A stretch of DNA of 64,000 nt, from positions 608,001 through 672,000 of the forward strand of contig CAXWPJ010000002.1 in NCBI GenBank assembly GCA_963664115.2, given 5' to 3'. Under the pieces are notes generated by a model that was not told the DNA's origin, searched no databases, and saw only the letters and a list, made by a program, of their open reading frames with translations. The stretch comes from Terriglobia bacterium (lineage in GTDB: Bacteria > Acidobacteriota > Terriglobia > 20CM-2-55-15). Positions 46,971 through 64,000 of the stretch are shown piece by piece (position 1 is the stretch's first letter; each line of letters opens with the position of its first letter). The position numbers and the translations under genes were made by a program.

Positions 46971-49385
46971 TTGAATCGTCCCTGGATTCTTTCTGTCCTG
47001 ATCCTGTTCCTGATCGCTGGCATCCCGACACTGGCGCGCGCGCAGTCGTCCGGTAGCGTTGAGGGCTTCATTGCCCTGCCGACCGGAGACCCTGTGGGCC
47101 GTGCAACCGTGCTGCTCTCCGGTCTGGACCGCGTGGCCGAAACCGACGCCAATGGCCGCTTTCGTTTCGACAACGTACCGGTAGGGACATATGGCTTGGT
47201 GGCATATCGGTGGCTCATGTCGGCTGAAGTCGACCAGGTTCTGGTCGGGCAAGGTCAGACCGGGAACGTCCGAATGCAGCTCGGGTCTGCCCTGGTGGTA
47301 ATGGAAACAGCCCGGCCGGCCGATCCGGCAAGGCTTGCCGAAGCCCCCGAAGCAGGTCTGGTGGCGTCGGCAAATTCCCAATCTCTTGAAGTGCCTGTGA
47401 ACGCCGTGCAGAACCGTTCGACCCCGATCAGCACGTTTGATATGACCCGTGCCGGAGCCTCGACGCTCGGCGATGCAATGGATTCCCGACTGGGATTTAA
47501 CACCCGAAGCTTCGGCCAGAGTATCTCGCGGCCAATTTTCAGGGGATTCGATGGAGACCGGGTTCTGATCCTCGGAGACGGACTTTCTGGTGGGTCGCTT
47601 GCCTACCATTCAGGTGACCATTTCGAGCCGTTTGCCCCGGGCACGATCGAACGGATCGAGTTCCTGCGCGGGCCTTCGACGTTGTTGTACGGCAACAGCC
47701 TGGTCGGCCGTGCGATCAATGTCGTCGGACCTGGCCGGACCCGAACGCCGGCTTCGGGTGAAGGCTGGCGTGGGCGCACGTCCTCCGGATTCGGCTTCGG
47801 TGACGCGTATGCCGGCAGTTCTGTCCAGGCCGAGTACGCGAGCGGCAACTGGCAGTTTTCGCTGGCCGGTAGCAGTCGCCGCGCCGGTGATTACGACTCG
47901 CCCCTCGGCTCGGTTGAGAACTCCGGGAACGGTCTGGCCGATGGCTCGGTGGGCATTACATGGTTCGACGACTCCGCGTTCATGGGTTTCAATTACAGCG
48001 TTGGTCGAGGAAGCTATGGCATACCGGTCGCACCCGAATTCCGATCTGCTAACGCAGCGATCCCCATACCGGATGCAGTCGATGTCGAGTTCCGTCGACA
48101 TGGTGTTGAGTTGTTCGGTGGCGCTCGTGCTGAGTACCTCGCGTTCGAGGGTTTCGAATTCTCGGCGAGTTACAGTTACTGGGACCACGATGAAATCGAA
48201 ACTTTCAATGATGTTGGTCCGTCCATCGCCACAAATTTCGGAAATCGGGTCTTGAGTTACCGCGCTTGGTTTGACCAGAAACGAGCCGGTGTTCTCGACG
48301 GCCGAATCGGATTCTCCACCTCGACCAGGGAATATCGGGCGAACGGCCGGGAGCAATTGTTGCCATCGGTCCGCCGTAACAATCTTGCGGTGTTTGCCGT
48401 CGAAGAACTCGATCTCAGTCCGTTTCTGTTAGAGATGGGTGGCCGTATCGATTATGCGGGAGATGGAGTGCGCGGCTTGCTGACCCGCCGGATCAACCCT
48501 CTTGACGCGGACGCCGGATTCGCGCAGGACTTTTTCCGGGGTCGGTCCTTTGTCGGGGGAACAGGATCCCTTGGCGCGAGTGTCCAGGCCTGGGACATCG
48601 GAGAATTCAGGGTCGACCTGACCAGTGGGTACCGGCAACCCGCAATCGAGGAGCTCTATAGTTTCGGTGCGCATGTCGGCCGTCTCACTTTCGACATCGG
48701 CGACGTCACCCTGCGAGCTGAGCGTTCCAACGGGGCCGAGATCTCATTCACCCACACGCGTCCACGGTTCAGTGCCGAGATGGATGTGTTCTATTACGAC
48801 ATCAAGAACTTCGTCTATTTCGGCCTGAACCAGAATTTCTTGCAGGGCCTTATGGAGGCGGAGTACCAACAGGGGCCGGCCCGGTTCAGCGGCGTTGAGC
48901 TGGCGCTGGATTTCCAACTGCACCGTTCAACCAGGCTGAAAGTTGGGATGGAAACCGTCCAGGCCACGCTCAGGGATCTGGGTACCTCCCCTCCCCGGCT
49001 TCCACCGTTTCGCGCAAGGTTCGGTCTGGACTACCGCCTCGGAGGTCTCCGTTTCAGTCCGGAGCTCATCGTGGCTGATTCCCGTGAGGAGGTGTTTTCG
49101 GGAGAGAATCCAACTCCCGGGTACGGACTGGTCAACATGGCCGCTTCCTATACGCTACCCCGCGAAAACATGTCGCATCAATTTGCGTTCAATGTCTTCA
49201 ACTTAGGGGACAAGCTTTACCGGGACCACAACAGCCTGCTCAAGCGCCTGGTGCCCGCATGGGGCCGTGGCTTCCGGATCACCTACGCGATGGAGTTCAC
49301 CAGACCGGCGCCTTCCGGTGGTGCATCGTCTTTCGATCAGGAAGGCCTGGGGTTGGCTGCGGGCGGGCCGACGCCATTGGACTGA
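46971..49385 (+). CDS. TonB-dependent receptor with N-terminal carboxypeptidase-regulatory-like domain (ZnuD-like)
   Basis: Signal peptide, TDANGRFRFDNVPVGTY, plug SRPIFRGFDGDRV..DG..GDH, IERIEFLRGPSTLLYG, FNLGDKLY; TTG start with GGAG RBS. Confidence 0.9.
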   Translation: MNRPWILSVLILFLIAGIPTLARAQSSGSVEGFIALPTGDPVGRATVLLSGLDRVAETDANGRFRFDNVPVGTYGLVAYRWLMSAEVDQVLVGQGQTGNVRMQLGSALVVMETARPADPARLAEAPEAGLVASANSQSLEVPVNAVQNRSTPISTFDMTRAGASTLGDAMDSRLGFNTRSFGQSISRPIFRGFDGDRVLILGDGLSGGSLAYHSGDHFEPFAPGTIERIEFLRGPSTLLYGNSLVGRAINVVGPGRTRTPASGEGWRGRTSSGFGFGDAYAGSSVQAEYASGNWQFSLAGSSRRAGDYDSPLGSVENSGNGLADGSVGITWFDDSAFMGFNYSVGRGSYGIPVAPEFRSANAAIPIPDAVDVEFRRHGVELFGGARAEYLAFEGFEFSASYSYWDHDEIETFNDVGPSIATNFGNRVLSYRAWFDQKRAGVLDGRIGFSTSTREYRANGREQLLPSVRRNNLAVFAVEELDLSPFLLEMGGRIDYAGDGVRGLLTRRINPLDADAGFAQDFFRGRSFVGGTGSLGASVQAWDIGEFRVDLTSGYRQPAIEELYSFGAHVGRLTFDIGDVTLRAERSNGAEISFTHTRPRFSAEMDVFYYDIKNFVYFGLNQNFLQGLMEAEYQQGPARFSGVELALDFQLHRSTRLKVGMETVQATLRDLGTSPPRLPPFRARFGLDYRLGGLRFSPELIVADSREEVFSGENPTPGYGLVNMAASYTLPRENMSHQFAFNVFNLGDKLYRDHNSLLKRLVPAWGRGFRITYAMEFTRPAPSGGASSFDQEGLGLAAGGPTPLD

Positions 49386-49409: not shown

Positions 49410-51056
49410 ATGAAGAAAGCCGATTCCCTGGCTTTTCTCGCGGTGTTTATTTCTCTTCTGCTTTCTGTGCCGACGACGAGGGCTCAGGAAGCGGATTTCG
49501 GCGACATTGAACTCAGGCGGGCGCCGCTTGTCGGGGAGGCCCGGTTGTCGCTGCAGCGGACCGTCGAAATCGCGCTGGAGAGCAACCCCGACCTCGTCGT
49601 GGAAAGGCTCCGAATAGAGCAGTCCCGGGCGGGTGTCGAGGAAGAAAAAGGCGTCTACGACCCAGTCTTTTCCATGTCCGGTCTTGCAGGACGGCGAGAC
49701 AACGTCATCGCGAGTAGATTTTTTCCGACCGGTGAATTCACCGAAGAGAATTTCGTTTACGGTGCCGGCCTGAACGGGGTGACGCACTTGGGATCCCGTT
49801 ACAGTCTGGATCTGAACTATCAACGTCAGATCTCAACGTCGAACACCCAATCTTTGAGTCCCCAGTACTCGGCTACGCTGGATCTGACTTACAGCCAGCC
49901 TCTGTTTCGCGATTTTGGCACCGATGTGACGCTGACCCAACTCCGGATTGCGCAGCGCGAACAGGACATTTCAGAAGAGAATCTGGCGATTGGTCTGACC
50001 AGCCTGATCTTCGAGGTCGTCGAATCGTACTGGAACCTGGTCTTTGCCACCGAGGACCTGGCTGTACGTCGCGCAAGCTTCGAACTGGCTGAAGCTTTGC
50101 TCGAGCAGACCGAAACGCTTTTTGAATCCGGACAATTATCTGAACTCGACGTCCTCGAGGCGCGGGCGGGTGTCTTCGAGCGACGCGAAGACGTAATCCG
50201 CTTCGAGAACCAAGTCGCTGGGGTCGAAGATCTCCTCAAAATTCTGATGTACGCGGACATGGCAGTTGTGAGCGTGACGCCGACCGAGCCGCTGATCGTA
50301 GTCCCCGTAGATCCGAACCCTCAGGAAAGCAACGACCGGGCTCTGGGTCGACGACCCGAGATCTTGAGGCTCCAGACCGTGCTCGAGCAGCGGCAGAACG
50401 AAACGATTTTTGCGTCCAACCAGGTGCGCCCACGCATCGACCTGAACTTGACGTACGGGATGAGTGGGCTGTCGGGAAGACCCAACTTGACACTCGTAAA
50501 TCCTGGAAATCCGCTACAGGGTTTTGCCGGAAGCACCGTCGCCGGTTCGGTGTTTGCGGGCCTGACACGGCCTCTGGGCGCGTTCAATCGGTTCTTCAGC
50601 GGCGACTCCTTCGACAACTGGAGTGTCGAGTTGCGTGTGGAACTACCCCTGCGCAATCGAACCGCTGAAGCCCGACTTGCCAATGCGGGACTGCGCGAGA
50701 AAGAAAGCCAGGTCACGCTGGCCACCGTTGAGGAACAGGTCGTATTCGAAATCCGCCAGGCGCTGAGGGACCTTTCCACGGCAACCGAGAGCATCGATGC
50801 GTCGCGCGAGGCAGTCCGCTATGTTGAGGACCAGCTCGTTGCGACGCGTACGCGGTTCGAAGCCGGCCTGTCAACCAGCTACGACGTTCTGCGTGTGCTC
50901 GAAACGCTGGCCCTGTCACGGCGGCGCGAGTTGCAGGCCTTGACCGACCACAACATTGCCCGCGCTGCGTTGAGTCTGGCCGAAGGCCGTATTCTGGAAG
51001 ACTTCAACGTCGAGGTGGGTGGGGCATCCCGCTCCAATTCGGGGACATCCTTTTAG
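49410..51056 (+). CDS. TolC family outer-membrane channel
   Basis: Signal peptide, LSLQRTVEIALESNPDL, QPLFRDFG, YWNL, RRPE, RFEAGLST; two-repeat OEP layout. Confidence 0.93.
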   Translation: MKKADSLAFLAVFISLLLSVPTTRAQEADFGDIELRRAPLVGEARLSLQRTVEIALESNPDLVVERLRIEQSRAGVEEEKGVYDPVFSMSGLAGRRDNVIASRFFPTGEFTEENFVYGAGLNGVTHLGSRYSLDLNYQRQISTSNTQSLSPQYSATLDLTYSQPLFRDFGTDVTLTQLRIAQREQDISEENLAIGLTSLIFEVVESYWNLVFATEDLAVRRASFELAEALLEQTETLFESGQLSELDVLEARAGVFERREDVIRFENQVAGVEDLLKILMYADMAVVSVTPTEPLIVVPVDPNPQESNDRALGRRPEILRLQTVLEQRQNETIFASNQVRPRIDLNLTYGMSGLSGRPNLTLVNPGNPLQGFAGSTVAGSVFAGLTRPLGAFNRFFSGDSFDNWSVELRVELPLRNRTAEARLANAGLREKESQVTLATVEEQVVFEIRQALRDLSTATESIDASREAVRYVEDQLVATRTRFEAGLSTSYDVLRVLETLALSRRRELQALTDHNIARAALSLAEGRILEDFNVEVGGASRSNSGTSF

Positions 51057-51069
51057 TCTGGAGCCCAAC

Positions 51070-51885
51070 ATGAAATCAACGATTCGAATAATGTGCGGCG
51101 TGTTGGCCCTCGGCGTCGGCTCTGGCCAGTTTCTTGCTCAACAAGCCGCGACCGGTGTCGTGCGAGCCGAAGAGGCCGTCATCGTTCGCAGCGAAGTTGT
51201 GGGCATCGTCGACCAAATCGATGTCCAGGAAGGCCAGCGCATATCGGAAGGCGAGCCGCTCGTGCACCTGCGGAAGGACCTCCAGGAGATCGGTCTCCGC
51301 CTCGCAGCGGCACGGCTGGATCGGGCTGAAGCCACCGCGGCCGCCTCGGAGGTGACGCTTGAGAATGCCCGGCACACTCTGGCACGAGTGGAAGTCGCGG
51401 CAACTGCGCTGACCGAAAAGGAATACGAGGACGTCATCGATGAGGTGCACCGTTTGGAGGCGCTGCTAAAGGCGCAGGAGGCCGAGGTCGTCGAGTTCCG
51501 CGTGGAGCAGGATCTTCGCCAGCAGGAGTTTGACGCCCGCTCGATTCGTGCCCCCTTCGACGGTACCGTCACAGCGGTCTATCTGGTGCGGGGCGACGCC
51601 GTGGCGCCTCTGGAAACGCCGATTCTGGCCCTCGTGCTTCTGGATCAACTGTACGTCGAGCTGGCACTGCCGGTGTCTGAACTCCCCAGACTCGCAGAAG
51701 GCATGCGGGTTGGAATCGACGTGGAAAGCGAAGTCCTTGGCCCGGCCGGACAGGTGGGCGGTGTCATCCGATATATCAATCCCACCGTCGACCCGTCGAG
51801 TCGCACGTTCCTGGTTAAAGTCGGATTTTCCGATCCGCCCGGACAGATCCGACCTGGAATGCGGGCTGACGTCGAGCTGCCATGA
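51070..51885 (+). CDS. HlyD/RND-type periplasmic adaptor (membrane fusion protein)
   Basis: Lipoyl half-motifs GIVDQIDVQEGQRI and IRAPFDGTV around a coiled coil; INPTVDPSSRTF, IRPGM; ATG 51070. Confidence 0.92.
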   Translation: MKSTIRIMCGVLALGVGSGQFLAQQAATGVVRAEEAVIVRSEVVGIVDQIDVQEGQRISEGEPLVHLRKDLQEIGLRLAAARLDRAEATAAASEVTLENARHTLARVEVAATALTEKEYEDVIDEVHRLEALLKAQEAEVVEFRVEQDLRQQEFDARSIRAPFDGTVTAVYLVRGDAVAPLETPILALVLLDQLYVELALPVSELPRLAEGMRVGIDVESEVLGPAGQVGGVIRYINPTVDPSSRTFLVKVGFSDPPGQIRPGMRADVELP

Positions 51886-51912
51886 TGCCTGGAGACATTC
51901 GATAAGGTTTAA

Positions 51913-53775
51913 ATGGAATACAGAGACGAACACCATGATGAGTCGGCGCCGGCCGACCTGATCGACGAGCTGGAAAGCCTTAGACGTTTCAATGGCCCGC
52001 CGGCACAGTTCTGGCCGCTGTTTCTGGAAAAGGCCGGCATGTTGGTGACGGCCCATCTGGCCGTGCTGCTGATGTTTTCCACCGACGACAAGTCCTGGAA
52101 GCGTATGGCCCTGTGGCCTGAGAGCGAGAAGGACACGCTCAAGATGCCGAAGCTGACCGGCGATATCGAGCGGGTGGCCGGTCGTTCCCTGGCCGAACGG
52201 TCCGCGATCAGCTCCGATGATCTTCCACCCGAACTGGGCGATGCCTGCCTGATCGGCCTTCGTCTCGGGACCGGGCAGGATGTCCAGGTCGTGGCCGTCT
52301 TCATCATCGGGAACTCGACCTACACCGATGCCGAAGAGGCGCGAATGCGCCTCAGCCTGATTGCCGATACGCCGAGCCTCTATCAACTCGGGCGCCTGTT
52401 TGACCAGACGCGATCCGATGTCGGCAAGTTCAGCGATTCGCTCGACCTGACGGTCCTGATCAACGACCAGACCCGCTACGTCGCAGCCGCGATGACGCTA
52501 TGCAACGAAGTCGCCTCCCGATTCAACTGCGATCGCGTGTCGCTGGGCTGGTTGAAGGACGGCTATGTCCGGGTCCAGGCCATCAGCCACATCGAACGCT
52601 TCGAGAAGAAGATGGACGTGGTTCAGGCGCTGGAGGCCGTCATGGAAGAGGCTCTGGACCAGGACACGGAAATCGTCTGGCCTTCGCCCCCTGAGGGCCA
52701 CTTCATCACCCGCAGCCACGAGTCGTTTTCGAAACGCGAAGGCGCTTCCGACATCGTGTCGCTTCCGATGCGGATCGAAGGGGTTCCGGTTGCGGTTCTC
52801 ACCTGCGAACGGAGCGGTGATTCGTTCGCTGAAGAAACCGTCCGCGGACTACGACTGCTTTCCGACCTGGCCACACGTCGCCTGGGCGATCTTCGCGACC
52901 GGGACCGGTGGATCGGCGCCCGGGTGGCCGGGGCGGTTCGTGACGGTGCCGGGCGTCTGGTGGGCGTCGAACACACCTTCGCCAAGCTCGCCGGCATCGT
53001 GCTGATGGGTCTTCTGGCGTTCGGAATTTTCGGAACCCTGGAATACCGCGTCGAAGCGCCGTTCGTTCTCAAGTCCGACGATGTCGTCTACGTGTCGGCG
53101 CCTTTTGACGGGTTCATCGATCAGGTGCCCATTGACGTCGGCGATCCGGTGGAACCCGGTGATCTGTTGCTCAGTTTTGACACGCGCGAACTCCTCCTTC
53201 AGGAAGCCACGGCGATCGCAAACCAGATCCGTTACGAGCGGGAAGCCGAGCAGGCCCGGGCCCAGCGCGCAACCGCCGACATGATGATCGCTGAAGCGCT
53301 GGCCGACCAGGCCGGGGCGCAACTGGCACTGGTGCGGCACTTTATTGAACGGGCCGAGGTGCGGGCGCCGTTCAACGGCATTGTCGTGGAGGGCGATCTT
53401 CAGGAACTGTTGGGGACACCGGCTCAAAAGGGAGATGCGCTGTTCCGGATCGCCCGGACCGAGAACCTGTACGCCGAACTCGAACTCGATGAGCGGGACG
53501 CCCAGGACGTGTCGGAGGTGTCGACCGGCGAGATCGCTTTCCTGACCCGCCCGGATCTGGTTTTCCCGATCGTGGTTGAACGGACCGATCCGGTGACGGT
53601 GACCCGCGACGCAGATAATGTCTTCATCGTTCGCGCTAACCTGTCGGGCGAAGCCTCAGACTGGTGGCGGCCCGGCATGAGCGGCATCGCCAAGATCAAT
53701 GCGGGGCGGAGAAACGTCCTCTGGATCCTTACGCACCGAACGATCGATTTTTTGCGAATGTACCTGTGGTGGTAA
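51913..53775 (+). CDS. GAF-like domain + HlyD adaptor fusion protein
   Basis: Cytoplasmic GAF-like region (CDRVSLG, EEALDQD, IVSLPM, AVLTCER), one TM, VSAPFDGFI / VRAPFNGIV, WWRPGMSGIAKI. Confidence 0.85.
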   Translation: MEYRDEHHDESAPADLIDELESLRRFNGPPAQFWPLFLEKAGMLVTAHLAVLLMFSTDDKSWKRMALWPESEKDTLKMPKLTGDIERVAGRSLAERSAISSDDLPPELGDACLIGLRLGTGQDVQVVAVFIIGNSTYTDAEEARMRLSLIADTPSLYQLGRLFDQTRSDVGKFSDSLDLTVLINDQTRYVAAAMTLCNEVASRFNCDRVSLGWLKDGYVRVQAISHIERFEKKMDVVQALEAVMEEALDQDTEIVWPSPPEGHFITRSHESFSKREGASDIVSLPMRIEGVPVAVLTCERSGDSFAEETVRGLRLLSDLATRRLGDLRDRDRWIGARVAGAVRDGAGRLVGVEHTFAKLAGIVLMGLLAFGIFGTLEYRVEAPFVLKSDDVVYVSAPFDGFIDQVPIDVGDPVEPGDLLLSFDTRELLLQEATAIANQIRYEREAEQARAQRATADMMIAEALADQAGAQLALVRHFIERAEVRAPFNGIVVEGDLQELLGTPAQKGDALFRIARTENLYAELELDERDAQDVSEVSTGEIAFLTRPDLVFPIVVERTDPVTVTRDADNVFIVRANLSGEASDWWRPGMSGIAKINAGRRNVLWILTHRTIDFLRMYLWW

Positions 53776-53781
53776 TGATCG

Positions 53782-55935
53782 ATGGCCTTCGGTAATACAT
53801 TCAGCGAATCCTGGCACCGGGTGGCCGGGCTGCGGATCAGCCTGCGGCCCACCGTATCGGCAAGGAAGCAGTTTTTCCGCGGTGAGACCTGGTACGTACT
53901 GGAAGACCCCTTCAACAACAGTTTCTTCCGCTTGCGTCCCGAAGCTTACGAATTCGTTTCCCGCCTGGCACCGGACCGCACGGTTGAAGAGGTTTGGGAA
54001 GGTTGCCTGACGCGCAAACCCGAGGACGCTCCGGGGCAGGAAGACGCGATCCGGCTGCTCAGCCAACTCTATTTCGCAAACCTGTTGTATTTCAAAACGG
54101 CCGGCGACAGCGAGGCGTTGTTTGAGCGGTACCGGCAGCGCCGCCAGCGGGAAACCAAATCCAAGCTCATGTCGATCATGTTCATGCGCATTCCCATGAT
54201 CGATCCCGATCAGATGTTGCGCGCCGTTATGACGGCGATTCGTCTGTTCATCAGCCCGATCGGATTGGCGATATGGGTTGGGGCTCTGGGTTACGCGATC
54301 AAGCTCTTCTTCGACAACTTCGCCGAAGCCGCTGACCAGACCCAGGCCATTCTGGCGCCGTCGAACCTCTTCCTGCTCTATCTGGGCCTGATCGTCACCA
54401 AGACCGTCCATGAGTTCGGCCACGCCATCGTCTGTCGACGGTACGCCGGAGAAGTGCACACGATGGGCATCATGCTGCTGGTGTTCACGCCGATCCCCTA
54501 CATGGACGCCACGTCGAGCTGGTCGTTCCGAAGCCGATGGCAGCGCGCGTTCGTGGGCGCGGCGGGCATGATCTTCGAGCTGTTTGTCGCGTCGATTGCA
54601 ACCGTCGTGTGGGCCAATACCGATGAGGGCACTATACACAGCCTGGCGTACAACATGATGTTCGTCGCGTCGATTTCGACCCTGGTATTCAACGCCAACC
54701 CGCTGCTGCGCTTCGACGGTTACTACATCCTCTCGGACCTGGTCGACATTCCGAACCTGTCGAACCGGTCGTTCCGGCAGATCCGTCACGTCGTCGAGCG
54801 CTACGGATTCGGATACCTGGAATCCGAGAGCCCGTCGGATTCGATGCGCCAGGCCACGCTGCTTGGCGGTTTCTGCGTCCTGAGCGCGGTCTACAAGGTC
54901 CTCGTGTTCACTGGAATCGTTCTGTTCGTGGCCGACAAGCTGTTTCTGGCCGGATTGATCATGGCGGCGGTGTGCGTGTTTGCCTGGCTGGTCGTTCCGT
55001 TAACTCGGCTGCTGACCTACATAGCGACCGGTCCGCACCTGGCGCGGAAGCGGGCCCGCGTTGCCCTGGTTTCGCTCGGTACACTTGGCGTCGTTTTCGG
55101 ATTTCTGGGCGTCTTCCCCTTCCCCAATCATTTCCGTGCCGATGGCGTTCTCGAAGCCGCCCGATTCCAGCTCGTCGCCAACGATGCGTCCGGCTACGTC
55201 GTTGCGGTGCGGACACCACCGGGTGCAACGGTCCAGCCGGGAACCCCGCTGTTCGAACTGGCCGATCCCGAGCTTCAGTTCTCGATCGATTCGGCCGAAG
55301 CCGAGCGTCGGGAAACCCTGGCCTTTATGCAACGGGCCCTGGACAGGCAGATCGCCGAAATTGAGCCGATTCAGAAACGGCTGGACACCATCGAGCAGAA
55401 GATTGCCGACCTGGAACAGGTTCGCGAATCTCTGCTCGTGGTAGCCGCACAAGAAGGTATCTGGGTCGCGGCCGAGTCCGGTCAGCTCGACGGGTCGTGG
55501 GTCCAGCGCGGTTCGATCCTGGGCCAGGTCATCGACGAGGGTCAGTTCCGGTTTGTGGCCGCTGTTCTCCAGGACGAAGCGTCCAACCTGTTCGCCGAAG
55601 CGATTCGAAAGGCCGAGGTCCGTGTTCGCGGACAAGGGGGATTGACCGTCCCGGTCCAGTCCTATGAAGCCATTCCCTTCGAATACCGAAACCTCCCCTC
55701 GGCTGCGCTGGGCTGGCTGGGCGGTGGTGACGTGCCGGTTGCCGCCGATGACGAGACCGGTGTGGCGGCCACCGAGCCGTTCTTCCTGATCTACGCCGAT
55801 CTGGACGACGTGGGTGAGGTGGCGTATCTCCGCGGTCGGCGTGGCGAGATCCGGTTCACCCTGGAGCCGCAGCCGCTGCTGGCGCAGTGGTACACGAAAT
55901 TCCGCCGGTTATTGCAGGAGCGGTACCAGATTTGA
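53782..55935 (+). CDS. PqqD/RRE-like domain + site-2 (M50) metallopeptidase + HlyD adaptor fusion
   Basis: HEFGH (54409-54423) and NANPLLRFDGYY (54691-54726) within TM region; N-terminal YVLEDP..FFRL..AYEF..L..RTVEE winged-helix-like pattern; C-terminal lipoyl/coiled-coil module. Confidence 0.88.
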   Translation: MAFGNTFSESWHRVAGLRISLRPTVSARKQFFRGETWYVLEDPFNNSFFRLRPEAYEFVSRLAPDRTVEEVWEGCLTRKPEDAPGQEDAIRLLSQLYFANLLYFKTAGDSEALFERYRQRRQRETKSKLMSIMFMRIPMIDPDQMLRAVMTAIRLFISPIGLAIWVGALGYAIKLFFDNFAEAADQTQAILAPSNLFLLYLGLIVTKTVHEFGHAIVCRRYAGEVHTMGIMLLVFTPIPYMDATSSWSFRSRWQRAFVGAAGMIFELFVASIATVVWANTDEGTIHSLAYNMMFVASISTLVFNANPLLRFDGYYILSDLVDIPNLSNRSFRQIRHVVERYGFGYLESESPSDSMRQATLLGGFCVLSAVYKVLVFTGIVLFVADKLFLAGLIMAAVCVFAWLVVPLTRLLTYIATGPHLARKRARVALVSLGTLGVVFGFLGVFPFPNHFRADGVLEAARFQLVANDASGYVVAVRTPPGATVQPGTPLFELADPELQFSIDSAEAERRETLAFMQRALDRQIAEIEPIQKRLDTIEQKIADLEQVRESLLVVAAQEGIWVAAESGQLDGSWVQRGSILGQVIDEGQFRFVAAVLQDEASNLFAEAIRKAEVRVRGQGGLTVPVQSYEAIPFEYRNLPSAALGWLGGGDVPVAADDETGVAATEPFFLIYADLDDVGEVAYLRGRRGEIRFTLEPQPLLAQWYTKFRRLLQERYQI

Positions 55936-57917
55936 TCGTTCCCAGCCATGACTACATGCGGACGGCCACGGTGGAACCGCCCGAGTTTCATCGTGGGTGG
56001 GATGGGGCGGCCTACGGCATCGTCGGCGCGTGGAAACGCCGACCAACCACACTCGGCCGCTTCGGGCGCCAGGCGGACCGGATCTATGACATGGCCGGCC
56101 GGCTTGGACATTTGTCCGACAGCGCTCTTCGGGAGCGCATGTCCGGATTTCGGGAGCGATTCCGGTGCCACCGGGTCCGGGATGACGCGGTGGTCTCCGA
56201 GGCTCTGGCCGCGATCGTCGAGGCCGCTGAACGGAGGCTGGGACTGCGGCCATACCCGGTGCAGATCGTCGGTGCCCTGGCCATGGATCACGGATTTCTC
56301 GCCGAGATGGCCACCGGCGAAGGGAAGACGCTCACCGCCTGCCTGCCGATGATCCTGGCCGCCTGGACCGAGCGCCCCGCACACCTGGTCACGGTAAACG
56401 ATTACCTCAGCGACCGCGATGCAACGGAGATGGGTCGCCTCTACGCTTTCTGCGGTGTTTCAGCTGCGGCGGTGACCGCCCCTATGGACCAGCGCGAACG
56501 GTACCGGAACTACCAGAAAGACGTCGTCTACGTCACCAGCAAGGAGCTGGTCGCTGACTTTCTCCGCGACCGGCTGCGGTTGGGCAAACTCGAGCATCCC
56601 ACACGACGGCTGATCGCCGGCATGTTGCCCGGCGGTACCATCCGGCCCGACGAAATCGTGATGCGCGGTCTGGACACCGTGATCGTCGACGAGGCCGACA
56701 GCGTTCTGATCGACGAGGCGGTGACGCCGCTGATCATCTCCCGGGCCCGCGATAACGAGACGCTGCGTGAAGCGTGCCGCATCGCGAGCGAGATTGCAGA
56801 TACGCTGGAGCCCGGCAGCGACTATCAGGTCGATGAGCGGTACAAGGAAGTCCGGATCACCGACGCCGGCGAGGCCCGGGTTCTTGATGCCGCGGCAAAA
56901 CTGCCCGGCGTCTGGCAGGGGACCCTGCGCCGCGAGGAGTTGGTCAAGCAGGCGTTGACCGCGCGCGAATTCTATATCCGGGACAAACAGTACGTCGTCG
57001 ACGACGGCCGATTGACGATCGTCGATGAGTTCACCGGCAGACTGATGCCGAACCGGTCCTGGCGGGCGGGCCTCCACCAGGCCGTTGAAGCCAAGGAAGG
57101 CCTGGATGCCACGCTGCCGACCGAGACCCTGTCCCGGCTGAGTTTTCAGCGGTTCTTCCGGCAGTTCCGGCGAATCGGCGGGATGACAGGGACGGCCAGC
57201 GAAGCAGCTTCCGAGTTCTGGCACATCTACGGGCTGCCCGTCCTTCGGGTCCCGACACACCGGCCGATGGTGCGCGATACGTATCCGGACCGGGTATTTG
57301 CGACCCGGGACGAGAAATTCAACGCGATCGTCGATGAAATCGCGGCCTGTCACGAGTCCGGCCGTCCCGTTCTGGTCGGAACCCGAAACGTCGAAGCCAG
57401 TGAGACTCTCGCCTCACTGCTCCGGTCCCGGAACCTGGAATTCAACCTGTTGAACGCCACCCACCACAGCGACGAAGCACGCATCGTGGCTGCGGCCGGC
57501 CAGCCCGGCAACATCACTATTGCGACGAACATGGCCGGACGTGGGACCGATATCAAGCTGGGCCGCGGCGTGGGAGCCATGGGCGGGCTCCACGTCATTG
57601 CCACCGAGCGCCATGAGGCGCGGAGAATCGACCGTCAGCTCTTCGGACGATGCGCACGACAGGGCGACCCCGGCAGCGCGCGGGCCTATATCAGCGTTGA
57701 TGACGAACTAATCAAGCGCTTTGTGCCGGTCTGGGTACGGAACGGGCTCGAAACTGCCGTTGCCGCCGATTTGCCGGCCGCATCGCAGATGGCGCATAGG
57801 GTGTTTCGATATGCGCAAAAGGCGGCCGAAAAACTCGCATTTCGGCAGCGCGCCTCGGTGCTGCGTGCCGATGAGCACCTGGAACGGAGCCTTGGTTTCG
57901 CCGGTCCCGGCAGCTGA
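55932..57917 (+). CDS. Accessory, C-terminally truncated SecA-type ATPase (SecA_DEAD)
   Basis: EMATGEGKT, VTVNDYL, DEADSVLIDEA, IVDEFTGR, GLHQAVEAKE, TNMAGRGTDI, RRIDRQLFGRCARQGDPG; ~660 aa; TTG 55932 overlaps the upstream TGA, CAGGAG RBS. Confidence 0.93.
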   Translation: MIVPSHDYMRTATVEPPEFHRGWDGAAYGIVGAWKRRPTTLGRFGRQADRIYDMAGRLGHLSDSALRERMSGFRERFRCHRVRDDAVVSEALAAIVEAAERRLGLRPYPVQIVGALAMDHGFLAEMATGEGKTLTACLPMILAAWTERPAHLVTVNDYLSDRDATEMGRLYAFCGVSAAAVTAPMDQRERYRNYQKDVVYVTSKELVADFLRDRLRLGKLEHPTRRLIAGMLPGGTIRPDEIVMRGLDTVIVDEADSVLIDEAVTPLIISRARDNETLREACRIASEIADTLEPGSDYQVDERYKEVRITDAGEARVLDAAAKLPGVWQGTLRREELVKQALTAREFYIRDKQYVVDDGRLTIVDEFTGRLMPNRSWRAGLHQAVEAKEGLDATLPTETLSRLSFQRFFRQFRRIGGMTGTASEAASEFWHIYGLPVLRVPTHRPMVRDTYPDRVFATRDEKFNAIVDEIAACHESGRPVLVGTRNVEASETLASLLRSRNLEFNLLNATHHSDEARIVAAAGQPGNITIATNMAGRGTDIKLGRGVGAMGGLHVIATERHEARRIDRQLFGRCARQGDPGSARAYISVDDELIKRFVPVWVRNGLETAVAADLPAASQMAHRVFRYAQKAAEKLAFRQRASVLRADEHLERSLGFAGPGS

Positions 57918-58000
57918 ATTCAAGTTGCTGTCGGGCATTTCCCTAGGGATTATTCCCCTGGAAAAATGAGTGGCGGGGCGTGTTTTTGGCGTGTCACTCC

Positions 58001-58030
58001 TTGACATTATGGTGTCTCATGCGTTAAAAG
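58001..58030 (+). promoter_or_regulatory. Possible sigma70 promoter for the giant protein gene
   Basis: TTGACA at 58001-58006 followed by an AT-rich but imperfect -10 (TTAAAAG, 58024-58030). Confidence 0.4.
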
Positions 58031-58075
58031 ATCCTAGCTTTAAAGCTTAGAATTACTGGGAAGAGAAAGCTCAAT

Positions 58076-61000
58076 TTGAGTCGAAAGCAAGACAAAGAAC
58101 GCTACAACCTTGAGAACCTCGAGCCCCGAATCCTACTTTCGGGTGACCCCCTCGTCGGTGCCTTAGCCAGTCTTGCGCCCAGGGAGGCCGACTCTGAAGA
58201 GCCCATTCTCACCTCCGTTCAGGAGGTGACGGTTTCGGAAGAAACGCTCTACGAATCCCACACAACCGACTCGGAACCGTACGATCCGGCGGCCTCGGTC
58301 GACGACATTTTCTCTGGTATGACCGGTGAAGATTCTCTCGCCGATGGTGCCGATGACGCGTCCGATTCCTCCGATTCCAGCGACGTCAATTTCCCGATCG
58401 GCGACGACGAAGCCGCGCAAATTGTGCAAGGCCTCGACGAACTGGCCGGCGTCGGCGAGGTGATCAGCGAGTCTGAAACGCTGACCACACCGCTCGATGG
58501 TCTGGGTGATCTATCACTGGGCGACGTCTTCGGCGTGGGCGAAATTCTGGATTCGCGACTGGCGAAATCGGTGTATGACCACTTCGGTGATGCGGTCGAT
58601 CCGCCCACTGTAGAGGGAGTCATAGAGGCCATCCGAAATGGCCTGACTGCCCTGGGTGAACAGGAAATTTCAGTCAGTTCACTCGAGGGTATAGTTGTGT
58701 CTGGCGGCGAACAGATCCGCTTCGACATCGCCTTCACCCTCCGCCAGTCCGGTCAAATCTTTCTCGATCAAGACCTTACCGATTCCGACGGCGCCGAATC
58801 TACCACCTATACCGCAACGCTGAAAGTCGATTTGAGTTTTGGTGTTGATCAAGGCCAGTCCGACAGCTTTTTCCTCATCATTCGTTCTCTTGAGATCGAA
58901 TTGACCGTGAATCAGCCCGGAACGGGAGCTTCTGAGAGCGGCCGTGTCGAGGTCGGGTTCGCTGGGGCGGCCGGGGCAGACGGCGCGCTCAGCGTCGCCG
59001 AACTCGAGGCGATCCAGTCCAGCGGTGCCGAACTGGAGATCGAGGCGACCGGATCGCTGTTCGATGACGGAAGCGCAGATTTTGCGTCACTGGCTGCGAC
59101 CTCTGCGCTGACCACTTCGGGAGCCGCGACCAGCTTCGTGACGTTGGATGAATCCCCTGCCGCAAGCTCGGCAGTGACCACCAACCTCGCCGATCTGACG
59201 CTTGGGCCCAACTCGATCACGACGTTCAATATCGGCGGCACAACCCCCGGCTCCGGATACGACCAGACTATCGTCTCTGGCGACGTCACACTGGATGGCG
59301 AGCTGGCAATCGTCGTGGCCGCCGGCTTCGGCCCGAGCCTGGGCGATACATTCGACATCGTCACGTTCACCGGAAGTGTGAGCGGCGCATTCGTCGACGG
59401 AACCGGCATCTACGGGTTTGGCGATGGTTCGCTGTTCCTTGAGGTCGTCGTAGAAGACAGTACTGCCGAAAGTGACGGTAAGGTCCAGCTGGAAGCCAAG
59501 ACGGCCCCGGGCGGGAATTTCATAACTTCCAGTACGCCACTGCTCAGCGATGTGCTCGGCCTCTATTACAGCGAGTACTTCACGCTGGGCGCTTCGGTCG
59601 CCATCAGCGGTGAGATCAACATCGGCGGATACGTGACCCTCGCGGGAACCTTTGAATTTGGCTTCAGTCTGGATGAGACGGTCACGCTTGGGACCGGATT
59701 GCCGACGACCCTGACTCCCGAGCTCGTGACCACTGTTGGCGCACAAATCGAATTAGCTCTGGCCACGATCCCGGGTACCCAGATTCTTTCCCCTGATCTG
59801 CAGTCGATCACTGGCCTTCCCGTTGCGGTTCTGGAAATCGGCGGTAGCAATATCCACGCGTTCGTGGGTGTGAACGGGCCGTACTGGACAGACCTGAATG
59901 GAAACGGGGACGTCGATACCGGGGAAACCAACGAAAGTGCCACCGGCCTGGCGATTACCAACGTCGATTTCGGTTACGTTGCGATGCAGTTGCTGCCTTC
60001 GGTTGTGGCCTTGCCCCTCAACGCCCAGTTCTTCCAGGCCTTGAAGGCGACCGCATCCCAGGTGGGGTTGGTGGGCGTCCCCAACGTCGAACTGTCGGTC
60101 GATAACGTTCTGATCGAAGTCAACTCGGGTCCGACCTGGACGGCGCTGGGTGTTAGCGGTGACGGGCCGGCGGTGGTCGACTTTGAAGCTAGCTTCCTGG
60201 CCCAGACTGGAACCGACACGGACGGAGACAGCAAGCACGTTGAGCCGGCTGGCTATGAGGTCGGTACCGGCACGGTGCCGGTTTACATCGACCTGGATGG
60301 CAACGAGCGGCTCGGTGCCAGTGTGGACAACGCGCTGCTGTCGATCGGGGGCAGCGACGGCAAGTTTGTCTATGCGAACGGCAACCTGTCGTTCGAGAAG
60401 GGCCCGACCAGCATCGTGACTGTTGCGACCGGTATCCCGGCCAACATCAATGGAACCCCGGCCGGAGACACCATCGAGACGAATTTCGCGACCCGGACGG
60501 GGTTGAGTGGCAGCAGCGCGACACTGTCGGGCGACATGCAGACGATCAGTAACGTTCAGATGGCCAGTCTTCAGATTGGCGGAAGCGCTATTCAGATCTT
60601 CGTGGGCGTCAACGGGCCATACTGGACAGATTCGGACAAGGACGGCAACGTCGATCCCGGAGAAACCAGCGACAACGCGACCGGCGTGTCGATCACCAAC
60701 GTGAACTTCGGTCTGGTGACGATGACGCCGACCCAGGAACTGCCGCTGTTGAGCAGCCAGACCTTCACGGCGTTGAAGCTGACTGGTTCCCAGGTGGGCC
60801 TGGTTGGAGTCCCTGGGGTGGAGTTGTCGGCCGACAACGTACTGGTGGAGGTCAACACGGGTCCGACCTGGACGGCGACGGGTATCAACGGCGATGGCCC
60901 GGCGGTGGTCGATTTTGCCGCCAGCTTCCCGGCGGCGAACGGCTCCCCGGCCGGTTTCGAGGTGCGCACCGGCACGACATCGACGCCCGTCTATATCGAC

Positions 61001-64000
61001 TTCGACGGCAACGAACGAATCGGTGCGAGCGTGGACAACGCGTTGTTGTCGATCGGGGGCAGCGACGGCAAGTTCGTATACGCCAACGGAAACCTGTCGT
61101 TCGAGAAGGGCCCAACCAGCATTGTGACGGTTGCAACCGGTATACCGGCGAATATCGTTGGAACCGCGACCGAAACGGCCTTGAGAGCGCAGTTTGGTGT
61201 GGCGACCCTCGTAAGTAGCAACGTCACGCTGTCGAACGATCTGCAGACCATCAATAACGTGCAGGTTTCAGGCCTTCAGATTGGCGGCAGCAACATTCAG
61301 ATTTTCGCCGGAGTGAACGGGCCGTATTGGACAGATACGGACAAGGACGGCAACGTCGATCCTGGTGAAACCAGCGACAGCGCGACGGGCGTGTCGATCA
61401 CCAACGTGGACTTCGGGTTGGTGACGATGACGCCGACCGTCGAGTTGCCGCTGTTGAGTGACCAGACGTTTACGGCGTTGAAGTTGACCGGTTCCCAGGT
61501 GGGACTGGTCGGTGTCCCGTTTGTGCAGCTGTCGGCCGACAACGTTCTGGTGGAAGTGAACACGGGGCCGACCTGGACGGCGGCTGGTATCAATGGTGAC
61601 GGGCCGGCGGTGATCGATTTTGCCACCAGCTTCCCGGCGGCGGGCGGCTCCCCGGCCGGTTTCGAGGTGCGCACCGGCACAACATCGGCACCGATCTATA
61701 TCGCTTATGACGGCAACGAGCGGATCGGTGTAAGCGTGGACAACGCGTTGTTGTCGATCGGGGATAGCAGTGGCAAGTTCGTCTATGTGAACGGCGACTT
61801 CTCGTTCGAAAAGGGCCCGACCAGTATCGTGAGTGTCGCGACCGGTCTTTCCAGCGACCAGCTGCCAGGCGTTCCGGCCCTCATAAAAGCGCAATTCTTG
61901 GCCGAGGCGTTCCTGAATCAAACCAACGCGACCTTGTCGGCCGACCTGCAGACGATCAGCAACGTTCAGATGTCGAGTCTGCAGATTGGTGGCAGCAACA
62001 TTCAGGTCTTCGTGGGCTTGGGCGGACCGTACTGGACGGACCTGGATCGCAATGATGATGTCAGTTGGGCATTGCCCGATGGAACCACCCGGACCAACGC
62101 CAACGGCACGCCGATGGCGAATTTTGTCCACACTGATGGCGTCACCTACGGTGACCTCAACGGCGACGGTGTGGTGGATGCGAACGAAACGGCCGAGCTG
62201 AGCGAAAACGCGACCGGATTCGCAATCACCAACGTCAATTTTGGTCTTGTCATGTTGACGCCGACCCAGGAACTGCCGATGCTGGGCAGCCAGACCTTCA
62301 CGGCTCTGAAGCTGACCGCCACCCAGGTCGGTCTGGTGGGCATCGATGAAGTTCAGATCAGCGCGAATGACATCACCGTCAGCGTGAACGTCGGGCCAGA
62401 TTGGACAGGTCTGGCTAGCGGGCAGGGACCGGCGGTCGTTGATTTCGTCAACAGTTACCCGGCTGAAGCCAGCAACACCGACAGCGACAACGATGGACTG
62501 TTGGGCGAGCCGGCCGGCTTCCAGGTGCGTACCGGCACTACATCGGCGCCGATCTATATCGATTTCGACGGCAACGAGCGAATCGGCGCCAGGATCGAAA
62601 AAGTCACGCTGAAGATCTCCGAAGTTGTCCATGCGACCGGCAGCATCGAGTTCCTCAAAGGCCCCGTGCAGAGGGTCGGTCTGACCGGCGGGGGCGATAA
62701 GCAGCTGTCGTTCATGACCATTGGCGGGTCCAACCTCCACGCGTTCATTGGCATGGACGGTCCGTACTGGACGGACCTGGACGCCGATGACGACATCAGC
62801 TGGGCCTTGCCGGATGGGACCACCCGGACCAACGCCAATGGCACGGCGATGGCGGATTTCATCCACACTGATGGCGTCACCTACGGTGACCTCAACGGCG
62901 ACGGCAAAGTCGATGCCAATGAGACGGCTGAGCTGAGCACGGAAGCTGTGGGGCTGGTCATCAACGACTTCGATTTCGGCCTGGCAATTATGTCGCCGAC
63001 GAGCCCATTCGACTTCGTCGACTACTTCGCCCTCAAGGCCAGTGCCGATCAGATCGCTCTGGTGGGTATCGACGACGTGACGATCTCGGGCGAGGACATC
63101 AAGGTCGCAGTCAACCATTCCAGCCCCAGTCTCAAAGGCATACCGATCTTCCCGGTCGTCGATTTCAGCAACACAACTGTCCGGCCGGAGTTCGCCAACG
63201 AGGAGTTGGCGCTGTTCGACCAGAATATCAGCGGACGAATCACGCTTGGCGACCTGGCGACCCTGAATGCAGCACTTCCTGCCGCATCCAGATTCGCCGA
63301 CCTCGCGGGAGTCTCCCTGACCGATGCCACACCGGTCGATCACGAAGGCTTGCTCGCCATCCTGAACACGAACGACGCCGGAGACAGTCGGGGCATCATC
63401 GACATCGACGAAGCCGCGGCGTTGCTCGGCGGTGCGACGGCGGTTTCGCAGGTCGAGAATGCGGACATCGACCTCGATGGCAAGATCGATCCGCTCGGTT
63501 TCGAGATTGGCACCGGCGGCGATCCGGTGTACCTGGACATGAATTCGGTCCTGATACGCGCGCAGGGATTTGTCGACATCAAGATTCTTGATGTCGTATT
63601 CCTGTCCGGCAGTGTCGCCTTTGAACTCGGGCCCATCCACACGGTGACCCTGGCCGACGGCGTGACCACCAAGAGCGTCAGCACGATGACCATCGGCGCG
63701 GCCAACGTGACCGGATTCATCGGTGTAGACGGGCCGTACTGGACCGATCTGGACGGCGATCACGAGGTTTCCTGGTCGGATGCGAACGGCGACCCGTTGG
63801 TCGATACGGATGGTGACGGTGTCGTCGATGCGAACGAGACCTCTGAGCTGAACGGCGATGCAGTCGGCTTCCACGTGACCGATCTCGATATCGGTATCAC
63901 CCTGATGGCCGCGACTGCGCTTAATGATCTGGGCGTATACCTCGCCGCCAAGCTCGACGTGAACAGCTTCGGCCTGATCGGAATCCCCGGGCTTACGGCG
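58076..64000 (+). CDS. Giant LEPR-XLL-motif acidic repeat protein, probable secreted adhesin/surface protein (partial, >=1975 aa)
   Basis: TTG 58076 (first start after in-frame TAA 58025) reads MSRKQDKERYNLENLEPRILLSGDP...; frame still in register at the window end (..NSFGLIGIPGLTA); six GPYWTD-anchored repeats with DxDxDG loops. Confidence 0.92.
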   Translation, partial: MSRKQDKERYNLENLEPRILLSGDPLVGALASLAPREADSEEPILTSVQEVTVSEETLYESHTTDSEPYDPAASVDDIFSGMTGEDSLADGADDASDSSDSSDVNFPIGDDEAAQIVQGLDELAGVGEVISESETLTTPLDGLGDLSLGDVFGVGEILDSRLAKSVYDHFGDAVDPPTVEGVIEAIRNGLTALGEQEISVSSLEGIVVSGGEQIRFDIAFTLRQSGQIFLDQDLTDSDGAESTTYTATLKVDLSFGVDQGQSDSFFLIIRSLEIELTVNQPGTGASESGRVEVGFAGAAGADGALSVAELEAIQSSGAELEIEATGSLFDDGSADFASLAATSALTTSGAATSFVTLDESPAASSAVTTNLADLTLGPNSITTFNIGGTTPGSGYDQTIVSGDVTLDGELAIVVAAGFGPSLGDTFDIVTFTGSVSGAFVDGTGIYGFGDGSLFLEVVVEDSTAESDGKVQLEAKTAPGGNFITSSTPLLSDVLGLYYSEYFTLGASVAISGEINIGGYVTLAGTFEFGFSLDETVTLGTGLPTTLTPELVTTVGAQIELALATIPGTQILSPDLQSITGLPVAVLEIGGSNIHAFVGVNGPYWTDLNGNGDVDTGETNESATGLAITNVDFGYVAMQLLPSVVALPLNAQFFQALKATASQVGLVGVPNVELSVDNVLIEVNSGPTWTALGVSGDGPAVVDFEASFLAQTGTDTDGDSKHVEPAGYEVGTGTVPVYIDLDGNERLGASVDNALLSIGGSDGKFVYANGNLSFEKGPTSIVTVATGIPANINGTPAGDTIETNFATRTGLSGSSATLSGDMQTISNVQMASLQIGGSAIQIFVGVNGPYWTDSDKDGNVDPGETSDNATGVSITNVNFGLVTMTPTQELPLLSSQTFTALKLTGSQVGLVGVPGVELSADNVLVEVNTGPTWTATGINGDGPAVVDFAASFPAANGSPAGFEVRTGTTSTPVYIDFDGNERIGASVDNALLSIGGSDGKFVYANGNLSFEKGPTSIVTVATGIPANIVGTATETALRAQFGVATLVSSNVTLSNDLQTINNVQVSGLQIGGSNIQIFAGVNGPYWTDTDKDGNVDPGETSDSATGVSITNVDFGLVTMTPTVELPLLSDQTFTALKLTGSQVGLVGVPFVQLSADNVLVEVNTGPTWTAAGINGDGPAVIDFATSFPAAGGSPAGFEVRTGTTSAPIYIAYDGNERIGVSVDNALLSIGDSSGKFVYVNGDFSFEKGPTSIVSVATGLSSDQLPGVPALIKAQFLAEAFLNQTNATLSADLQTISNVQMSSLQIGGSNIQVFVGLGGPYWTDLDRNDDVSWALPDGTTRTNANGTPMANFVHTDGVTYGDLNGDGVVDANETAELSENATGFAITNVNFGLVMLTPTQELPMLGSQTFTALKLTATQVGLVGIDEVQISANDITVSVNVGPDWTGLASGQGPAVVDFVNSYPAEASNTDSDNDGLLGEPAGFQVRTGTTSAPIYIDFDGNERIGARIEKVTLKISEVVHATGSIEFLKGPVQRVGLTGGGDKQLSFMTIGGSNLHAFIGMDGPYWTDLDADDDISWALPDGTTRTNANGTAMADFIHTDGVTYGDLNGDGKVDANETAELSTEAVGLVINDFDFGLAIMSPTSPFDFVDYFALKASADQIALVGIDDVTISGEDIKVAVNHSSPSLKGIPIFPVVDFSNTTVRPEFANEELALFDQNISGRITLGDLATLNAALPAASRFADLAGVSLTDATPVDHEGLLAILNTNDAGDSRGIIDIDEAAALLGGATAVSQVENADIDLDGKIDPLGFEIGTGGDPVYLDMNSVLIRAQGFVDIKILDVVFLSGSVAFELGPIHTVTLADGVTTKSVSTMTIGAANVTGFIGVDGPYWTDLDGDHEVSWSDANGDPLVDTDGDGVVDANETSELNGDAVGFHVTDLDIGITLMAATALNDLGVYLAAKLDVNSFGLIGIPGLTA
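59876..64000 (+). repeat. Intragenic tandem repeats of ~235-325 codons
   Basis: GPYWTD codons start at 59876, 60614, 61319, 62024, 62759, 63731 (spacings 738, 705, 705, 735, 972 bp). Confidence 0.9.

Follow-up and report, generated by a model that had tools for sequence, protein, structure and literature searches.

The 64,000-nt stretch of a Terriglobia bacterium genome analyzed here (the window, positions 608,001 to 672,000 of contig CAXWPJ010000002.1) ends in five tightly packed genes for a TolC channel, a small HlyD-type adaptor, a GAF-HlyD protein, an RRE-M50-HlyD fusion and a short SecA-family ATPase, followed by the start of a giant gene whose product carries an N-terminal LEPR-XLL tag. 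We favor, at a probability of about 0.52, the reading that this module is an ABC-free, envelope-spanning exporter that picks the neighboring giant by its LEPR-XLL leader; that the module exports LEPR-XLL-tagged proteins at all is highly probable, judging from the gene associations described below. The locus has no type I ABC transporter, yet its mode of action is likely similar to that of type I exporters that process a leader. It adds to a module that has so far been described by computation only (Kamneva, Poudel and Ward, 2015; PMC4452313). Below, G000 is the host genome (97% complete), C2 coordinates are those of the host contig, and G and L numbers denote relatives and loci.

Linkage of the LEPR-XLL tag to the module

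That tagged genes and module go together, as the preliminary description expected, is strongly backed by counts in several genome sets and by physical linkage. Among 41 relatives, a short SecA (at least 530 bits, matched to residue 658) was found in G000, G011, G012, G013, G017 and G018; these six genomes, and no others, have the tag, and they represent six genera whose sister genomes carry neither; the four other genomes of the host genus also lack both. Second SecAs without module genes, in G024 (716 aa) and G036 (814 aa), fall outside this count. Across 251 genomes of the phylum, four, one of them G000, have both a short SecA and the tag, and no genome has only one of the two; a further 21 SecA hits are frames of 843-1009 aa. 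Of 301 Pseudomonadota genomes, 20 have a short SecA (E 1e-120), 31 the tag and 19 both, so that the tag is present in 19/20 genomes with a short SecA versus 12/281 without; in the sole untagged short-SecA genome, the giant gene runs off the contig. In Planctomycetota (121 genomes), all nine of the best-scoring short SecAs (at least 580 bits) lie in tagged genomes; below 580 bits the assignment is ambiguous, with many SecAs of 640-720 aa, some without an M50 gene nearby. Finally, outside Planctomycetota a tagged gene lies no more than 15 kb from the short SecA in 25 of 43 loci. A related-locus search with a single SecA returned 18 loci, 10 of which held a canonical SecA and were excluded from module counts; G318, at a contig edge, was left out.

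The tag model NF012209 misses divergent tags, for example at L135. Loci L131-L135 hold planctomycete SecAs of 640-655 aa without an adjacent M50 gene, and at one of them the SecA stands beside two proteins with E-x-L-E-D-R-T-L-L tags, below NF012209 detection. Transposases flank some module loci. The notion that a broken SecA goes with a lost tag was rejected: SecA matches with apparent internal stops proved intact in the two cases examined, G478 and G442.

An ABC ATPase or other dedicated pump was sought at several scales. A profile built from the ATPase domains of G000 itself gave 50 hits genome-wide, the nearest to the cluster being C2:581371, on the upstream side at 76 kb from tolC, and C2:843757 on the downstream side; by this profile no cognate ABC gene lies just downstream of the giant. 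In 68 related stretches the profile matched nothing but a pair of 340-aa subunits, encoded on the opposite strand 6 kb from one locus without SecA. Two of 18 further stretches had a match: in G018 an exporter gene ahead of a dispersed tagged gene, and in a planctomycete a sugar-type ABC close to a SecA that stands alone. None of the HlyB, PrtD and LssB models scored above cut-off in any of five module-bearing genomes (5/5). A Pfam scan of 83 neighbors, chosen from 174 script-picked genes plus a few substitutes, revealed no recurrent energizer or regulator gene, one locus having a MacB-type permease. The preliminary description had asserted that no ABC gene lies in the cluster; by both the profile and the Pfam scans this holds for the cluster and its surroundings, and no exporter ABC was seen in the fetched module loci.

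The fusion protein, the short SecA and two forms of the module

The fusion combines an RRE (RiPP recognition element) of the PqqD fold (residues ~19-105), an M50 protease part with HEFGH at 210-214 and D312, and an MFP (membrane fusion protein) part at 444-697. The "PqqD-like" label of the preliminary description finds no match in Pfam, and comparison of folds agrees with it. In the AlphaFold model (pLDDT 84.7), the RRE reads E26-32, E35-42, E47-51, H53-60, H68-78 and H86-98, and residues 19-105 match RREs solved with bound leaders (5v1u, Z 9.4, rmsd 3.1, 82/84 aligned; 6jx3, Z 9.3), with a further match to 5sxy (Z 8.7). The M50 part matches RseP (7w6z, Z 9.5) and SpoIVFB (Z 9.0), and the MFP part matches MFPs at Z 13-15, the Foldseek listing containing MFPs only. 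Seven long helices modeled between residues 159 and 444 fit an N-in, C-out topology. The protease site is complete: HExxH is kept in 58/58 M50 rows, and H210, E211, H214, N304, P307 and D312 are invariant in 83 rows. Because of this conservation, the M50 part is likely an active leader peptidase, whether or not it also serves as a pore. In NCBIfam the fusion scores best against the daptide peptidase NF041824 (E 2.4e-46; 158.6 bits, below the cut-off of 300); the five cluster genes include no short precursor and no daptide enzymes.

Copies of the fusion also occur outside the module. In acidobacteria, a solo RRE-M50-HlyD paralogue lies near clpB (G000:C4:44262-46544; L049, L050) and forms its own long branch. 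At L051 and L053, in two genomes, the fusion is split at an identical place (143 aa + ~590 aa), setting the RRE apart from the protease; this split may be genuine.

The short SecA retains both nucleotide-binding domains and the preprotein-binding domain and ends within the initial portion of the scaffold helix. Pfam matches are PF07517 (SecA_DEAD), PF01043 and PF21090, the preprotein-binding and P-loop domains being among the hits, and the same scan gave no match to SecA_SW. Its TTG start is backed by an identical 661-aa database protein and by homologues mostly of 660-663 aa. GEGK, DEAD and the motif VI arginines are invariant across 62 short SecA rows, in keeping with the earlier assignment as a putative ATPase. 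Alignment to B. subtilis SecA covers only residues 14-607 of ~840, and the modeled terminal helix (617-654) ends near B. subtilis position 610-620; we take the wing domain and the two-helix finger that engage SecY to lie beyond this point. Canonical SecA acts on SecY through C-terminal parts that the short form lacks, which suggests a clamp-and-ratchet action. The host also has a canonical SecA (a 915-aa frame at C4:167922-170669, 38% identical to the short one) and SecY; the ORF (open reading frame) list and family scan reveal no secY in the locus, and SecA2 family models all score below cut-off on the short SecA.

The module does not always come with SecA. A second search of the 12 tagged Pseudomonadota genomes in which no strong short-SecA match had been found gave a divergent short SecA beside the M50 gene and a tagged gene in two, a contig-end fragment in one, a relic in one and the canonical SecA alone in eight. 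The M50-HlyD fusion is present in all 12 (12/12), and because eight of these tagged genomes have the fusion without a short SecA, RRE-M50-HlyD, rather than SecA, appears from these searches to be the more constant partner of the tag in tagged Pseudomonadota. "SecA-powered", as the system had been called, can thus apply to the short-SecA subtype at most. SecA-less loci typically run giant, TolC, HlyD, GAF-HlyD, M50-HlyD and then unrelated genes, and they differ from SecA-linked loci in several proteins at once: (i), an N-terminal S-x-x-W-x-R helix of the fusion, specific to SecA-linked copies, is present in 41/41 complete SecA-linked rows versus 0/14 rows without SecA, three other SecA-linked rows having it in a separate N-terminal frame; (ii), GAF-HlyD is mostly 605-690 aa long with SecA and 445-501 aa in 11/12 SecA-less loci, the shorter form being without the first GAF-like domain; (iii), leaders take the form ExLEPRxLLS in SecA-type and xALEPRxLLD in SecA-less genomes, the residue three places ahead of the core being acidic in 36/36 SecA-type leaders (35 from short-SecA genomes) versus 0/9 SecA-less ones, and a final S in 33/36 versus a final D in 9/9; (iv), tagged frames reach lengths above 5,000 aa in 16/22 short-SecA versus 0/8 SecA-less Pseudomonadota genomes, many frames being cut by contig ends and G450 being excluded. 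In a FastTree phylogeny of M50 (L052 excluded for its over-long frame), 43 SecA-linked rows fall on one side of a branch with support 99 and the 11 SecA-less rows form one clade; given this single clade, the split between the two forms appears to be one evolutionary event, not many.

The relic, at L044:10742-12694 in G450, is a 650-aa frame that occupies the SecA place between M50 and tolC and comes after a frame of more than 6,000 aa; it has neither Walker A nor a DEAD motif and no Pfam match. In the SecA-less loci L037, L038, L047 and L048, peptidoglycan-binding domains of the SPOR or OmpA type are fused to TolC or encoded after it. A group of SecA-linked loci without TolC (L062, L066, L069, likely L068, L070-L072, L081, L082) continues into a ShlB/FhaC transporter and, where scanned, a protein of ~2,000 aa with a two-partner secretion (TPS) domain, so that in one clade the module comes with a two-partner secretion pair. 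DUF3467 (L003, L004, L025) and SapC (L054, L057, L059, L061) are optional members, neither of them in the window cluster; DUF3467 was rejected as a core part here, having been found in 0/5 genomes including G000.

Gene layout and likely cargo

The five genes, their spacing (13, 27, 6, -4 and 158 nt between successive genes from tolC to the giant) and the tag are as the preliminary description had them, and family scans back each label (Table 1). For the small HlyD we adopt the ATG start, where relatives' alignments begin at residue 1. GAF-HlyD likely contains a second GAF-like domain upstream of the annotated one, as suggested by alignment of its N-terminal half with its GAF half (hhalign probability 63%, E 6.9e-5).

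Table 1. Coordinates of the cluster genes and of the start of the giant gene in the window.
Feature	Position	Strand	Details
TolC-family outer-membrane channel	49410..51056	+	548 aa; PF02321 (OEP) E 5.7e-46, two stretches; N-terminal hydrophobic signal, stretch 4-22
Small HlyD/MFP adaptor, likely periplasmic	51070..51885	+	271 aa from ATG; TIGR01730 (RND_mfp) 129 bits, cut-off 94.9; PF16576, PF13437
GAF-HlyD	51913..53775	+	620 aa; GAF 193-321, one membrane helix 356-374, MFP; PF01590, PF16576, PF13437, hydropathy
RRE / M50 metalloprotease / MFP fusion	53782..55935	+	717 aa; PF02163 (Peptidase_M50) above cut-off
Short SecA-family ATPase	55932..57917	+	661 aa, TTG start; SecA_DEAD E 5.3e-90
Giant protein, start	58076..64000	+	frame runs past window to C2:685758
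LEPR-XLL tag, giant residues 11-31	58106..58168	+	NF012209 31.3 bits, cut-off 17

Inspection of the DNA beyond the window extends the giant frame to 6,560 aa, with no ABC gene nearby. A second frame of 1,167 aa (C2:685907-689410) follows downstream of a break, and RTX repeats are found in both frames, toward the C-terminus. The break, at ~C2:685750, has no read cover in 4/4 runs and is plausibly an assembly error; 483-bp tandem repeats occupy C2:684735-685900 of G000 inside the giant gene, and their garbled third copy holds the frame break. The giant is acidic, rich in Gly, Thr and Asp, repeat-bearing and nearly Cys-free. NF012209, a 24-aa N-terminal motif, has its single genome-wide match in this protein; G011, G012 and G018 each carry 6-7 dispersed tagged genes. 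Tags of these loci read, for example, E-L-E-N-L-E-P-R (general form E-x-L-E-P-R); the window tag is of the SecA type, with an acidic residue three places ahead of the E-x-R core. By hydropathy it has no hydrophobic core, consistent with the earlier view that the giant lacks a hydrophobic signal peptide.

Upstream of tolC, a TonB-dependent receptor gene (46971-49385, + strand, 804 aa) stops 24 nt short of it and is possibly co-transcribed with it; the arrangement is not widely conserved. G013 (L030) has a gene of similar size and similar start at this place, and G017 a transposase-like gene. Further upstream of the receptor gene, a short frame at 45802-46215 (- strand) looks by eye like an integrase fragment and has no Pfam match. 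Promoter and terminator scans of the locus gave results at chance level, and the GC profile outlined no clear island.

Proposed export route, known systems and alternatives

The steps we propose are as follows. The cytoplasmic RRE would bind the LEPR-XLL leader, which the fold and the homologous daptide RRE-peptidase make quite probable. An inner-membrane passage would be built from membrane helices of the M50 fusion and GAF-HlyD, and the three MFPs would assemble into a mixed ring docked on TolC. The M50 site would then clip the leader during or after engagement, a cut that its conserved residues render rather likely although the substrate itself is deduced. In the SecA-linked subtype, the short SecA would dock on the machine, perhaps via the S-x-x-W-x-R helix or the extra GAF-like domain, and spend ATP to feed the unfolded chain N-terminus first; co-occurrence gives this motor role a better than even standing, comparable to that of the cut. 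Lastly, the RTX repeats would fold outside with Ca2+, as RTX proteins are established to do in a Ca2+-dependent manner outside the cell. The whole SecA-driven chain, exactly as written, stands at even odds.

The cluster shares TolC, MFP adaptors and an RTX-bearing cargo with type I systems such as HlyB-HlyD-TolC; it differs in having no ABC transporter (HlyB/PrtD/LssB), three MFPs, an M50 protease with a SecA-type ATPase, and an N-terminal tag on the giant. Recognition and cleavage of a leader at the inner membrane are known from peptidase-containing ABC transporters. A second SecA dedicated to large surface proteins is likewise known: the accessory SecA2 of Gram-positive bacteria. SecA2 proteins are ~760-790 aa long (model lengths) and work with SecY or SecY2, whereas the short SecA has 661 aa.

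Closest in print is the secondary SecA_DEAD locus of Kamneva, Poudel and Ward (2015), whose five neighbor clusters comprise M50, HlyD, GAF, SapC and a hypothetical protein, OEP and SapC genes being optional, with SecA as a possible co-opted ATPase, M50 as a possible pore and a regulatory role for the GAF protein (PMC4452313). The link of SecA_DEAD to type-I-related genes that the preliminary description mentioned is therefore published, and its core idea of a SecA motor and an M50 pore without ABC was already there. As far as the consulted parts of that paper go, the window locus has the same four core proteins, a SecA without SW domain and no ABC, and also a second SecA_DEAD protein in addition to a canonical 915-aa SecA encoded elsewhere, with M50-HlyD, GAF-HlyD and HlyD adjacent; those parts, whose data are computation and the re-reading of one microarray, name no cargo, leader, RRE, acidobacterial copy or SecA-less subtype (PMC4452313). 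The short SecA is 52-54% identical to planctomycete copies with the same neighbors and 38% to the canonical SecA of its own genome, a comparison made outside the paper's own sequences.

The tag has its own history. The planctomycete motif RRLxxExLExRxLLA (PF07595, Planc_extracel; Studholme 2004, cited in PMC8567305) was proposed as a possible novel export signal and is found on 8/10 of the longest Tuwongella proteins (PMC8567305). It shares with the window tag the E-x-L-E-x-R-x-L-L core and an N-terminal place on very large, likely surface proteins; the match of the window tag to PF07595 is weak (E 0.02), and the passages seen of PMC8567305 assign the motif no transporter. In Chlorobium chlorochromatii, the LEPRxLL giants Cag_663 and Cag_665, with "no known signal", exit the cell and reach the partner bacterium (10.64898/2026.03.19.712371), which counts in favor of the exporter reading; like the window giant they are tagged and beside tolC, with sapC also there. 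The authors' route runs through SapC, TolC and a remote HlyD, C-terminus first, and the portion of the main text consulted does not contain "M50" (10.64898/2026.03.19.712371). The daptide peptidase MpaP, in the text available, is an RRE-fused site-2 protease that cuts a leader with the motif ELExMEAP (10.1101/2023.03.08.531785): the RRE lies N-terminal to the protease as in our fusion, and ELExMEAP resembles E-x-L-E-P-R, a short likeness to be taken as a lead only. Unlike MpaP, the fusion matches the daptide model below cut-off, has a C-terminal MFP and has a putative substrate of thousands of residues. We found no paper joining tag to module, in a literature search whose scope excluded subscription journals, NCBIfam entry text and most supplements.

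Several observations weigh against the favored reading. In the phylum of G290 (n=141), the tag is found in 2/5 short-SecA genomes, several contigs being shorter than 10 kb, and G405 is tagged, yet neither a short SecA nor the M50 fusion was found in it. Related genomes are not independent, so Fisher tests overstate the co-occurrence. The RRE Z-scores of ~9 are modestly above background. A solo M50-HlyD paralogue exists in 3/6 untagged acidobacterial genomes examined as well as elsewhere in G000, and the fusion by itself is therefore no proof of a tagged cargo. The C-terminal RTX repeats of the cargo are typical of classical type I substrates, and in G018 an ABC exporter gene precedes one dispersed tagged gene. 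Canonical-length SecA is the only SecA in 8/31 tagged Pseudomonadota genomes, and the G450 relic lacks Walker A, which implies that SecA is dispensable in some lineages. Lastly, in the part of the Chlorobium study consulted, the giants are in the periplasm of partner-free cells, a poor fit to one-step export (10.64898/2026.03.19.712371).

Some of these points lend themselves to other readings. The same exporter and cargo could operate with the short SecA in an accessory role, as holdase or targeting factor when chains are very long, and with energy from the proton-motive force, from RTX folding outside or from the housekeeping SecA. We consider this unlikely, though it is the least unlikely of the alternatives: loci of the SecA-less clade have the tag, TolC, all three MFPs and M50 and show no dedicated ATPase nearby, tagged frames above 5,000 aa are confined to short-SecA genomes in the Pseudomonadota comparison, and G450 has retained a SecA relic without Walker A, but the ATPase motifs are invariant in the 62 short SecAs, planctomycete short-SecA genomes have mostly small tagged frames, and the SecA-less copies, being one clade, may be a single special case. 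Classical type I export is improbable. Here a remote ABC transporter would export the giant by a C-terminal signal and the module would only retain, process or release it via the tag, much as LapD and LapG do with LapA. RTX repeats near the giant C-terminus, around a dozen full-length frames resembling ABC exporters at other places in G000 and the G018 exporter gene would suit it; the sub-threshold HlyB, PrtD and LssB scores in five genomes, the fetched module loci free of exporter ABCs and the fact that the module brings its own TolC and three MFPs would not.

A two-step route, in which the short SecA would act as a SecA2 on SecYEG, M50 would remove the leader and MFP-TolC would take the protein from the periplasm, is also doubtful, a little less so than a remote ABC: the short SecA stops at B. 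subtilis position ~610-620, before the SecY-engaging wing and two-helix finger, the tag has no hydrophobic core, and two of the MFPs belong to inner-membrane proteins that have cytoplasmic domains. What speaks for it is the SecY of the host, the use of the canonical channel by SecA2-only systems according to the parts seen of PMC4452313, and the periplasmic Chlorobium giants (10.64898/2026.03.19.712371). Very improbable, in our view, is that the M50 fusion and GAF protein form a device for regulated intramembrane proteolysis or sensing, linked to the giant by co-transfer on mobile islands. GAF and site-2 protease domains are common in signaling, a regulatory role has been suggested for the GAF protein (PMC4452313, as far as consulted) and transposases lie beside some loci; against this, the dispersed tagged genes of G011, G012 and G018 still track the module, leader sequence type tracks machine type, and the 83 scanned neighbors include no recurrent regulator gene.

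Returning to the ABC-free exporter, we would tentatively go one step further, at slightly less than even odds: it could be a separate secretion class, in which RRE-M50, a RiPP-type unit for recognizing and cleaving leaders, has taken the place of the ABC transporter in a TolC exporter, recognizes the E-x-L-E-x-R-x-L-L tag and threads giants N-terminus first, with SecA-driven and motor-less forms and a SecA working without SecY. In the literature found, the module has been without a cargo since 2015 and the tag without a transporter since 2004; the work here joins both. If true, this would be a TolC exporter without an ABC, RND or MFS pump, with the SecA-less form telling which parts make up the core of the exporter, and it would offer an export path to proteins between 6,000 and >30,000 residues long, the giants of the Chlorobium symbiosis among them.

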